A DNA stretch of 64,000 nucleotides from the NCBI RefSeq assembly GCF_022846255.1, contig NZ_AP025682.1; one strand, 5' to 3'. This stretch comes from Escherichia coli (GTDB taxonomy: Bacteria > Pseudomonadota > Gammaproteobacteria > Enterobacterales > Enterobacteriaceae). Of the stretch, positions 8,512 to 55,863 are shown piece by piece; positions within the stretch are counted from its first letter, which is position 1, and each line of letters starts with the position of its first letter. The notes beneath the pieces are model-generated. The model ran no database searches and was not told the DNA's origin. It saw only the letters and a program-made list of their open reading frames with translations. The translations under genes and the position numbers were made by a program.

Positions 8512-12576
<4,065 letters not shown>

Positions 12577-12848
12577 TGTTATCCCTCTGAAGTTCGTTTT
12601 TTACCATTTAGCCATAGTAAAAACATGAATTGTTTGATTTCGCGCATATTCGCTCATAATTCGAAAGTGAAACGTGATTTCATGCGTCATTTTGAACATT
12701 CTGTAAATCTTATTTAATAATGTGTGCGGTAATTCACATTTAATTTCTGAATGTTTTCTTAACATCGCGGCAACTCAAGAAACGGCAGGTTCTCCCACTG
12801 AATCAGGCTGTTAATCATAAATAAGACCACGGGCCACGGAGGCTTTCA
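12577..12848. promoter_or_regulatory. Divergent glpACB / glpTQ control region
   Basis: 272-bp AT-rich spacer between divergent glpA and glpT starts; contains a CRP-like site and tandem ttcgc-containing repeats (tttcgcgcat attcgctcat aattcgaaag) resembling GlpR operator half-sites. Confidence 0.6.
12723..12738. promoter_or_regulatory. CRP-binding site candidate (TGTGC-N6-TCACA)
   Basis: tgtgcggtaattcaca matches the CRP consensus TGTGA-N6-TCACA with one mismatch. Confidence 0.55.
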
Positions 12849-14207
12849 ATGTTGAGTATTTTTAAACCAGCGCCACACAAAGCGCGCTTACCTGCCGCGG
12901 AGATCGATCCGACTTATCGTCGATTGCGCTGGCAAATTTTCCTGGGGATATTCTTTGGCTATGCTGCTTACTATTTGGTTCGTAAGAACTTTGCGCTTGC
13001 TATGCCTTACCTGGTCGAGCAGGGATTCTCACGCGGTGATTTAGGTTTCGCGCTTTCTGGGATCTCGATCGCTTATGGATTTTCGAAATTCATCATGGGC
13101 TCGGTGTCGGATCGCTCGAATCCGCGCGTTTTCCTGCCCGCAGGTTTGATTCTGGCGGCGGCAGTGATGTTGTTTATGGGCTTTGTGCCGTGGGCGACGT
13201 CGAGCATTGCGGTGATGTTTGTACTGTTGTTCCTCTGCGGTTGGTTCCAGGGGATGGGGTGGCCGCCGTGTGGTCGTACTATGGTGCACTGGTGGTCGCA
13301 GAAAGAACGTGGCGGCATTGTGTCAGTGTGGAACTGTGCGCACAACGTCGGTGGTGGTATTCCGCCGCTGCTGTTCCTGCTGGGGATGGCCTGGTTCAAT
13401 GACTGGCACGCGGCGCTCTATATGCCCGCTTTCTGCGCCATTCTGGTGGCACTGTTCGCCTTTGCGATGATGCGCGATACCCCGCAATCTTGTGGCCTGC
13501 CGCCGATCGAAGAGTACAAAAATGATTATCCGGACGACTATAACGAAAAAGCGGAACAGGAACTGACTGCGAAGCAAATCTTCATGCAGTACGTGCTGCC
13601 GAACAAATTGCTGTGGTACATCGCTATCGCCAACGTGTTCGTTTATCTGCTGCGTTACGGCATCCTCGACTGGTCACCGACTTATCTGAAAGAGGTGAAA
13701 CACTTCGCGCTGGATAAATCCTCCTGGGCCTACTTCTTCTATGAGTATGCGGGCATTCCGGGCACCCTGCTGTGCGGCTGGATGTCGGATAAAGTCTTCC
13801 GTGGCAACCGTGGGGCCACCGGCGTCTTCTTTATGACACTGGTGACCATCGCGACTATCGTTTACTGGATGAACCCGGCAGGTAACCCAACCGTAGATAT
13901 GATTTGTATGATTGTTATCGGCTTCCTGATCTACGGCCCTGTGATGCTGATCGGTCTGCATGCGCTGGAACTGGCACCGAAAAAAGCGGCAGGTACGGCA
14001 GCGGGCTTTACCGGGCTGTTTGGTTACCTCGGCGGTTCGGTGGCGGCGAGCGCGATTGTTGGCTACACCGTGGACTTCTTCGGCTGGGATGGCGGCTTTA
14101 TGGTAATGATTGGCGGCAGCATTCTCGCGGTTATCTTGTTGATTGTTGTGATGATTGGCGAAAAACGTCGCCATCAGGAATTACTGCAAAAACGCAACGG
14201 AGGCTAA
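12849..14207 (+). CDS. glpT: Glycerol-3-phosphate:phosphate antiporter (MFS), 452 aa
   Basis: Protein recognised; 452 aa. Confidence 0.9.
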
Positions 14208-14211
14208 TGGC

Positions 14212-15288
14212 ATGAAATTGACGCTGAAAAACCTTAGCATGGCGATCATGATGAGCACTATGGTCATGGGAAGTAGTGCAATGGCGGCGGACAGCAACGA
14301 AAAAATAGTCATCGCCCATCGCGGTGCCAGTGGATATTTGCCGGAGCATACGCTGCCAGCAAAAGCGATGGCTTATGCGCAGGGAGCGGATTATCTGGAA
14401 CAGGATTTGGTGATGACGAAGGACGACCATCTGGTTGTCCTGCATGACCATTATCTCGATCGTGTTACTGATGTTGCCGATCGTTTCCCGGATCGGGCGC
14501 GCAAAGACGGTCGTTACTACGCGATAGATTTCACGCTCGATGAAATTAAGTCACTGAAATTTACCGAAGGTTTCGATATTGAAAACGGTAAGAAAGTACA
14601 GACTTATCCGGGGCGTTTCCCGATGGGTAAATCTGACTTCCGGGTACACACTTTCGAAGAAGAGATTGAATTTGTTCAGGGGTTAAATCACTCTACCGGG
14701 AAAAATATCGGTATCTATCCAGAAATTAAAGCGCCGTGGTTCCATCATCAGGAAGGGAAGGATATTGCGGCAAAAACGCTGGAAGTGCTGAAGAAATATG
14801 GTTACACCGGTAAGGACGACAAAGTTTATTTGCAATGTTTTGATGCTGATGAGCTGAAGCGTATTAAGAATGTGCTGGAACCCAAAATGGGTATGGATCT
14901 CAATCTGGTACAGCTGATTGCCTATACCGACTGGAATGAAACGCAGCAGAAACAGCCGGACGGAAGCTGGGTTAATTACAACTACGACTGGATGTTTAAG
15001 CCGGGGGCCATGAAACAGGTGGCGGAATATGCTGATGGTATTGGTCCGGATTACCATATGTTGATTGAGGAGACATCGCAGCCGGGTAATATCAAACTCA
15101 CTGGCATGGTGCAAGATGCTCAGCAGAACAAGCTGGTAGTGCATCCTTATACCGTGCGGTCAGATAAACTGCCTGAATACACTACTGATGTGAATCAGTT
15201 ATATGATGCTCTGTATAACAAAGCGGGTGTAAATGGGCTATTTACTGATTTCCCTGATAAGGCAGTAAAATTCCTTAATAAAGAGTAA
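14212..15288 (+). CDS. glpQ: Periplasmic glycerophosphodiester phosphodiesterase, 358 aa
   Basis: ATG 14212 with SD ggagg 14199-14203 inside glpT 3' end; signal peptide MKLTLKNLSMAIMMSTMVMGSSAMA; ORF-track start 14155 is an extension. Confidence 0.9.
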   Translation: MKLTLKNLSMAIMMSTMVMGSSAMAADSNEKIVIAHRGASGYLPEHTLPAKAMAYAQGADYLEQDLVMTKDDHLVVLHDHYLDRVTDVADRFPDRARKDGRYYAIDFTLDEIKSLKFTEGFDIENGKKVQTYPGRFPMGKSDFRVHTFEEEIEFVQGLNHSTGKNIGIYPEIKAPWFHHQEGKDIAAKTLEVLKKYGYTGKDDKVYLQCFDADELKRIKNVLEPKMGMDLNLVQLIAYTDWNETQQKQPDGSWVNYNYDWMFKPGAMKQVAEYADGIGPDYHMLIEETSQPGNIKLTGMVQDAQQNKLVVHPYTVRSDKLPEYTTDVNQLYDALYNKAGVNGLFTDFPDKAVKFLNKE

Positions 15289-52842: not shown

Positions 52843-53153
52843 TCGTGTTTATGACCTGTTAAAACTTCGCGAAGTGATAGGGCAGTATAAAGGGTACAGT
52901 GTGAAATTCCAGACTCTTACCTGATTGATGATTCTCTATTCTCCAGTGATATTTATCATCCTGCATTGGGGGAAATAGATGTACAAGCGCCATTTTGCTG
53001 TACAAATAACCTACAAAAAGCCTAACGAAATTAATTGCAAATAAACGAAGATTGCTGGAAATTATGCTGATGTTAATTATTTGTGAAATAGTTAACAAGC
53101 GTTATAGTTTTTCTGTGGTAGCACAGAATAATGAAAAGTGTGTAAAGAAGGGT

Positions 53154-54807: not shown

Positions 54808-55863
54808 ATGGAAATAAGCTTTACCCGCGTGGCACTGCTGGCTGCCGCGCTCTTCTTTGTTGGTTGCGATCAAAAACCACAACCCGCCAAAACCCACGCT
54901 ACTGAAGTTACCGTTCTTGAAGGCAAAACCATGGGTACCTTCTGGCGTGCCAGCATTCCGGGCATTGACGCCAAACGCAGTGCCGAACTTAAAGAAAAGA
55001 TTCAGACCCAGCTGGACGCCGACGATCAGCTGCTTTCGACCTATAAAAAAGATTCCGCGCTGATGCGCTTTAACGACTCGCAAAGTTTGTCGCCGTGGCC
55101 AGTAAGTGAAGCGATGGCCGATATCGTCACCACCTCGCTACGCATTGGCGCGAAGACCGATGGCGCGATGGATATAACCGTCGGGCCGCTGGTGAATCTG
55201 TGGGGCTTTGGCCCGGAACAACAGCCGGTTCAAATTCCGAGCCAGGAACAGATCGATGCGATGAAAGCCAAAACCGGCTTACAGCACCTGACGGTCATTA
55301 ATCAGTCGCATCAGCAATATCTGCAAAAAAACCTGCCGGATTTATATGTCGATCTCTCCACTGTCGGCGAAGGCTATGCGGCGGATCATCTGGCACGCTT
55401 GATGGAGCAGGAAGGGATTTCCCGCTATCTGGTGTCGGTGGGCGGCGCGCTGAACAGCCGTGGCATGAACGGTGAAGGCCAGCCGTGGCGGGTAGCGATT
55501 CAAAAACCAACCGATAAAGAAAACGCGGTTCAGGCTGTGGTGGATATCAACGGTCATGGCATTAGCACCTCTGGCAGCTACCGTAACTATTACGAACTGG
55601 ACGGCAAACGTCTTTCTCATGTTATCGATCCGCAAACCGGGCGTCCTATCGAACACAATCTGGTATCCGTGACGGTGATTGCCCCGACGGCGCTGGAAGC
55701 CGATGCCTGGGATACTGGCTTAATGGTACTGGGGCCGGAGAAAGCCAAAGAGGTTGTTCGCCGGGAAGGACTGGCGGTCTACATGATCACCAAAGAGGGC
55801 GATAATTTTAAAGCCTGGATGTCGCCGCAGTTTAAAAGCTTCCTTATCAGCGAAAAAAATTAA
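54808..55863 (+). CDS. apbE: FAD:protein FMN transferase ApbE (lipoprotein), 351 aa
   Basis: Lipobox LFFVGC near the N-terminus. Confidence 0.85.
   Translation: MEISFTRVALLAAALFFVGCDQKPQPAKTHATEVTVLEGKTMGTFWRASIPGIDAKRSAELKEKIQTQLDADDQLLSTYKKDSALMRFNDSQSLSPWPVSEAMADIVTTSLRIGAKTDGAMDITVGPLVNLWGFGPEQQPVQIPSQEQIDAMKAKTGLQHLTVINQSHQQYLQKNLPDLYVDLSTVGEGYAADHLARLMEQEGISRYLVSVGGALNSRGMNGEGQPWRVAIQKPTDKENAVQAVVDINGHGISTSGSYRNYYELDGKRLSHVIDPQTGRPIEHNLVSVTVIAPTALEADAWDTGLMVLGPEKAKEVVRREGLAVYMITKEGDNFKAWMSPQFKSFLISEKN

Follow-up and report, generated by a model that had tools for sequence, protein, structure and literature searches.

What are the three TTCG-containing 10-bp units that lie between the divergent glpA and glpT genes of Escherichia coli, and which protein do they serve? 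Judged from sequence and its conservation, they are probably half-sites for GlpR, the DeoR-family repressor of the glycerol-3-phosphate regulon, and form the core of a GlpR operator array on the glpACB promoter; we put the probability of this reading at about 85%. The units lie in a 64,000-nucleotide stretch of the E. coli chromosome (the window), whose coordinates we use throughout. Positions 12400–13000 are 100% identical to NZ_AP025214.2 and are found in 5,419 of 5,426 complete genomes, annotated as glpA/glpT. Between the ATGs at 12576 (minus strand) and 12849 lie 272 bp (12577–12848), the whole divergent intergenic region and the span singled out by an earlier note on this DNA. The minus strand carries glpA (10948–12576; anaerobic glycerol-3-phosphate dehydrogenase subunit A, NCBIfam NF008313 at 1107 bits, RefSeq glpA), glpB (9699–10982) and glpC (8512–9777), and the plus strand carries glpT (12849–14207; glycerol-3-phosphate transporter, NF008433 at 976 bits) and glpQ, which ends at 15288, all placed by open reading frames and NCBIfam scans. 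Compared with MG1655, the intergenic region has five differences, all outside the three units; window 12629–12668 corresponds to MG1655 2352555–2352594. Larson, Cantwell and van Loo-Bhattacharya in 1992 (J Biol Chem 267:6114), and Yang, Gerhardt and Larson in 1997 (Mol Microbiol 24:511), reportedly described the glpTQ-glpACB control region. The block analyzed here lies in that region, at the same locus in the same organism, and matches the GlpR half-site; nothing sets it demonstrably apart from the operators described there, and our findings agree with the accounts given in later papers.

As a plain repeat, the series of units is weak. The units stand exactly where the earlier note placed them, as TTTCGCGCAT (12638–12647), ATTCGCTCAT (12648–12657) and AATTCGAAAG (12658–12667), and to that extent its description of tandem ttcgc repeats holds; as a repeat, they give TRF a period of 10, 2.4 copies and a score of only 36, below the default threshold of 50. 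The output of a second repeat finder lacks the three units. Units 1 and 2 are identical at 8 of 10 bases, and unit 3 has only the TTCG core in common with them; the series is not a structural tandem repeat with high head-to-tail identity, and the likeness of its members is confined to a protein-binding core. A register shifted by 1–2 nt makes better biological sense: TTCGCGCATA (12639–12648), TTCGCTCATA (12649–12658) and TTCGAAAGTG (12660–12669), with spacings of 10 and then 11 bp and CG cores at 12641–12642, 12651–12652 and 12662–12663.

An independent model of GlpR binding recognizes the units in this register. We built a 10-bp half-site matrix from the 12 halves of glpD and glpFK operators, without using the glpA–glpT region. 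The six 20-bp operators and the GlpR consensus are those that we attribute to the Larson laboratory papers, and they were checked only against the MG1655 sequence and against general descriptions of the glpFK operators. Against a background in which scores of at least 5 bits occur at about 0.5% of positions, the matrix marks three adjoining half-sites. The first is the inverted ATTGTTTGAT on the plus strand (12629–12638, 7.0 bits), whose TTGAT doubles as the promoter-proximal half of a putative FNR box. The second is unit 1, read on the minus strand as TATGCGCGAA (12639–12648, 5.5 bits), which makes a palindromic operator with 12629–12638, and the third is unit 2, TATGAGCGAA on the minus strand (12649–12658, 6.7 bits), oriented as unit 1. 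Unit 3, CACTTTCGAA on the minus strand (12660–12669), lies 11 bp from unit 2 and is a weaker half-site, with 1.4 bits in E. coli; it has CGAAAGTG in common with AACGAAAGTG, the right half of the sequence that we assign as glpD operator 2. The resemblance to GlpR half-sites that had been proposed from the letters alone is thus borne out by a matrix drawn from the operators of other glp operons, and by the cross-species motif described below. A lack of matrix hits in the segment had been named as the result that would overturn the proposal; hits are present, so the reading stands.

Both the palindrome and the tandem arrangement stand out from their surroundings. Positions 12629–12648 match the 20-bp operator consensus WATGTTCGWTAWCGAACATW at 15 of 20 bases, one of only two such sites in the 64 kb, and rank 4th of 63,981 positions by matrix score, while the tandem-operator pair at 12629–12670 has the top score in the window. 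Sites with at least 13 of 20 consensus matches number 86 in the window, four of them inside the 272-bp intergenic region against 0.37 expected, and one of these four (12721–12740) is the CRP box itself. In 5,000 dinucleotide shuffles of the intergenic sequence, the best full operator was equalled in 1.9%, the best tandem pair in 1.5% and the best three-half-site chain in 8%. In literature text, the GlpR consensus string gave no match, and the unit sequences matched a PCR primer only.

The half-sites share an order and a phasing with known GlpR operators. Read in the glpA direction, the block consists of CACTTTCGAA, TATGAGCGAA and TATGCGCGAA in the same orientation, followed by the inverted ATCAAACAAT; counted from the inverted half-site, the three same-orientation half-sites follow at 10, 10 and 11 bp. 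The glpFK and glpD operators use the same half-site (about WATGTTCGWT) and the same 10-bp phasing. The layout recurs in glpFK O3–O4 (MG1655, minus ~379–418), where TAAGTTCGAT, ATTTCTCGTT and TTTGCTCGTT run in one orientation and are followed by the inverted AACGATAAGT. GlpR operators are usually drawn as two tandem palindromes. The two promoter-proximal operators that we assign at glpD have alternating half-sites that make two such palindromes, unlike the glpA block. A further difference lies in what the operators overlap: glpFK has four footprinted GlpR operators, with O4 over the -10 element and CRP sites over O2 and O3, whereas the glpA array overlaps an FNR box instead. Half-site and palindrome match, 10-bp phasing, location at a glp promoter and conservation of the motif together mark the block as a putative GlpR operator array. 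The exact operator boundaries, and the 10-mers that GlpR would contact, are those we infer from this match.

Cross-species comparison provides what we regard as the decisive support for the predicted array. We scanned one genome per species, which yielded 80 glpT loci, 54 of them with a divergent glpA, and aligned the intergenic regions of 36 Enterobacteriaceae. The alignment contains discrete conserved islands: ATTTAGCC (12606–12613), which is its most conserved short block; the TGTTTGAT block with the three units; ATGC at 12681–12684; the CRP box; the glpT -10 element TAACAT; and the glpT ribosome-binding site. Anchoring on TGTTTGAT recovered a four-part block in 53 of the 54 orthologous intergenic regions (Enterobacterales), while neighboring intergenic sequence, unlike the block, is not conserved. 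The four parts read ATTGTTTGAT / TTCGCGCATA / TTCGCTCATA / ATTCGAAAGTG in E. coli, ATTGTTTGAT / AAGGAACAAA / AACGAACGAA / AAACGAAAGTA in Yersinia and AATGTTTGAT / AAAGAGCAAA / AACGAACAAA / AAACGAAAATT in Brenneria. Units from the distant genera, such as AAGGAACAAA, AACGAACAAA and AAACGAAAAT, are close to the GlpR half-site AACGAACA in Yersinia, Serratia and Brenneria.

What is kept across these genera is a motif rather than a string of bases. Over 47 distinct sequences the unit profiles are WWSGMRCAWA, WWCGMRCAWA and WWCGAAARTR, where the GlpR half-site is AWCGAACATW; the pattern WWCG(A/C)(A/G)CA persists from Escherichia to Yersinia, Serratia and Brenneria though the bases change, and unit 3 keeps its WWCGAAA core. 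Matrix scores exceed the 95th percentile of intergenic background in 94% of species for unit 1, 94% for unit 2 and 77% for unit 3, percentages that overstate the independent support, since the 53 species are related and are not independent trials. Turnover of bases under a constant motif and a constant 10/10/11 spacing is the signature of a binding site, not of inertia alone. The eight bases of TGTTTGAT are constrained far more tightly than any other half-site, at 1.7–2.0 bits per position over the 47 distinct sequences, which is consistent with double duty for FNR and GlpR.

Two side observations came from the same survey. Citrobacter youngae carries a 1-base deletion in the otherwise invariant FNR/GlpR box (TGTTTG-TTTTGCGCAT, at about 53–70 of its intergenic region), which puts units 1 and 2 out of register and could reflect either genuine regulatory variation or a mistake in the assembly. 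In two Bartonella-labelled records, one a MAG and the other the complete B. choladocola genome, GlpT is 86–87% identical to the E. coli protein, and one of the two has a divergent glpA as well; these matches point to horizontal transfer or, in the case of the MAG, to contamination.

The array lies across the region where FNR is predicted to act on glpA. A putative extended -10 element, the invariant TGGCTAAAT in the minus-strand reading (12606–12614), predicts a glpA start near 12599, from which the four-part block spans about -30 to -70; counted from glpT, it spans about -100 to -140. A putative FNR box, TTGAT-TTCG-CGCAT, lies at 12634–12647, and its center at 12640.5 falls at about -41.5 relative to the start predicted for glpA. 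The E. coli box matches the consensus at only 7 of 10 positions, and matches of that quality (three mismatches) number 348 in the window, no excess over chance; at the same place Yersinia and Serratia have TTGAT-AAGG-AACAA, a 9/10 match, and TTGAT is invariant in the 47 distinct sequences. In enterohemorrhagic E. coli (EHEC), Kurabayashi et al. 2017 (PMC5352689) reported a 70-bp DNase I footprint of FNR(D154A) that contains this box, which they named an FNR-like motif at -123 to -136 of glpT. Mapped onto the window, the footprint covers about 12617–12687 and with it all three units. The site resembles class II FNR promoters (TTGAT-N4-ATCAA at -41.5) in its invariant TTGAT, its predicted geometry, which fits -41.5, and its place inside the FNR footprint. 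It differs in E. coli by its poor distal half, CGCAT, which doubles as a GlpR half-site. Unit 1 thus most likely overlaps both sites, serving two proteins as the distal half of the FNR box and as a GlpR half-site. The earlier note's reading of its units as half-sites is supported, but the note had omitted both this FNR overlap and the inverted half-site at 12629–12638.

These same features invite another explanation, in which the block is mainly a docking site for FNR and RNA polymerase that activates glpACB and enhances glpT anaerobically, and the GlpR likeness of units 2 and 3 is incidental. The footprint over all three units, the invariant TTGAT and the placement of the box at -41.5 of a start predicted from a conserved extended -10 element all speak for it, and part of the conservation could serve contacts of FNR or of the RNA polymerase alpha subunit, as the 70-bp in vitro footprint would allow. 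However, the FNR half-site overlaps unit 1 only, and units 2 and 3 keep the WCGA core of a GlpR half-site, not TTGAT or ATCAA. The E. coli box itself is a 7/10 match, one of 348 in the window. An FNR role of unit 1 is, moreover, compatible with binding of GlpR, and overlap of both sites is the most likely case. We therefore consider it improbable that FNR docking is the main function of the block, and prefer the reading as a GlpR operator array that includes the FNR box.

A response regulator, for instance ArcA-P, could also bind direct repeats at 10–11 bp. ArcA-type sites typically consist of repeats in one orientation at helical spacing, and the spacing of the direct repeats here fits. The regulators listed for glpABC are GlpR (-), FNR (+), CRP (+) and ArcA (-), and the units of Brenneria and Serratia, taken on the minus strand, are TGTTCGTT, near the ArcA repeat TGTTA. 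The minus-strand units of E. coli (TATGCGCGAA, TATGAGCGAA and CACTTTCGAA), however, lack TGTTA, and the conserved CG core is a feature of GlpR half-sites, so an ArcA origin of the repeats is very unlikely. Least probable of all is a chance likeness of functionless units in AT-rich intergenic sequence: the TRF score of just 36, the 8% of shuffles that equal the three-unit chain and the comparable chain scores at other AT-rich places such as 53024 and 55862 would allow it, but the block has the top tandem-operator score in the window, and its position, spacing and motif are kept across 53 species where neighboring intergenic sequence is not.

Activation of glpT involves a separate element of the intergenic region. 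The CRP box TGTGCGGTAATTCACA (12723–12738), TGTGC-GGTAAT-TCACA, matches the consensus TGTGA-N6-TCACA at 9 of 10 positions and is conserved; its center at 12730.5 lies 40–41 bp from the glpT start implied by a conserved -10 element, close to the -41.5 of a class II activator site. The CRP-like site that the earlier note set beside the units is therefore present where it said, but it is not adjacent to them, lying 55 bp away, and it belongs to glpT. The pattern alone is not rare: the window contains 3 matches, where 2.1 would be expected. The predicted glpT -10 hexamer, TAACAT at 12759–12764 on the plus strand, is conserved as TAACAT, TACCAT, TACTAT or TACAAT and points to a start near 12771. 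This start fits the numbering of the EHEC footprint, in which cAMP-CRP protects -30 to -52 of glpT (Kurabayashi et al. 2017, PMC5352689). The arrangement is that of a class II CRP promoter such as EHEC glpT, and the box spacer differs by one base, GGTAAT in the window versus GGCAAT in EHEC and MG1655.

Other candidate elements accompany this promoter. A second, weaker CRP-like box, CGTGA-TTTCAT-GCGTC (12673–12688), is centered at 12680.5, which corresponds to about -81.5 from the start predicted for glpA and about -90.5 from that of glpT; across Enterobacteriaceae, its left half is conserved as (T/C)GTGA. A generic promoter scan missed the promoters of both glpA and glpT, which are activator-dependent with a poor -35 element; its two matches, at 12692–12721, are probably not real promoters. 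Citrobacter, Enterobacter, Klebsiella and related genera have in common a conserved TTGTCAT-N6-TGTAACA immediately upstream of the CRP box, possibly a site of the ArcA type; in the three Escherichia species, other sequence stands at that position (12700–12722 in the window).

Further candidate GlpR operators flank the array on both sides. Over the predicted -10/+1 region of glpA lies GAAGTTCGTT|TTTTACCATT (12589–12608, spanning -10/+10), a 14/20 match to which GlpR may bind. Its half-site GAAGTTCGTT (12589–12598, 6.0 bits) falls on the predicted transcript of glpA at about +1 to +10 and is possibly part of an operator there; GTTCGTTTT is conserved in most Enterobacteriaceae. Toward glpT, near -90 of glpA, CATGCGTCAT|TTTGAACATT (12681–12700) is a 13/20 candidate with a matrix score of 6.8, and its TGAACAT is conserved in the Escherichia/Citrobacter clade.

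Sites farther away were less persuasive. Operator-like 20-mers occur in coding sequence at 12183–12202 in glpA (+407) and at 13078–13097 in glpT (+316). We rejected the former, the best matrix match in glpA, as a loop operator: it shows no excess of synonymous-site conservation (z of -0.6 to -2). A scan of glpA from +500 to +750 for GlpR operators gave nothing convincing, and the distal partners of the loop were not located in the window. Among half-site chains, the top score of the window belongs to the ompC region (53024–53054), where AACGAA-containing repeats stand about 20 bp apart. As GlpR arrays, this site and the one at 55862 look like chance matches in AT-rich sequence.

The arrangement points to a model of how one array could control two operons. 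Without glycerol-3-phosphate, tetrameric GlpR would cooperatively fill the array at the glpACB promoter. Because the innermost half-site pair is also the predicted class II FNR box at -41.5, GlpR bound there should keep FNR and RNA polymerase off glpACB, and the two regulators would compete at glpA. Relative to glpT, the array occupies about -100 to -140, farther upstream than the CRP class II site. From there it cannot occlude the glpT promoter, and it would have to act at a distance, by the looping that the literature describes, to distal operators. Secondary sources citing Larson 1992 describe four GlpR operators in the glpTQ-glpACB intergenic region and a repression loop, and glycerol-3-phosphate is reported to release GlpR. 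On induction, glycerol-3-phosphate would free GlpR, after which cAMP-CRP at -41.5 would drive glpTQ, and FNR would drive glpACB anaerobically.

A more specific version of the model concerns the order of the half-sites. The glpA array may be a fixed one, of three same-orientation half-sites and one inverted half-site on one helix face, on which a single GlpR tetramer would occupy four half-sites by placing its four flexibly tethered DNA-binding domains on four consecutive turns, as conservation of the array from Escherichia to Yersinia and its recurrence at glpFK O3–O4 would imply; its terminal pair, being the FNR box, would put GlpR and FNR in direct competition. We offer this arrangement tentatively and think it less likely than not. 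If it is true, the terminal pair shared by FNR and GlpR would integrate glycerol-3-phosphate and oxygen signals.

The biology of this locus is already known: it is the textbook regulation of glpACB and glpTQ, and we find no new element. The glpTQ-glpACB region is a classic case of a multi-operator repressor acting at a distance, part of which is re-identified here from sequence alone. This analysis itself contributes the agreement with an independent GlpR model, the phasing of the half-sites, the deep conservation of the block and its geometry relative to conserved promoter elements; cross-species comparison pins the core array to 12629–12669 and reveals its overlap with the FNR box. Both points bear on the anaerobic induction of glpT, and hence on the uptake of fosfomycin.
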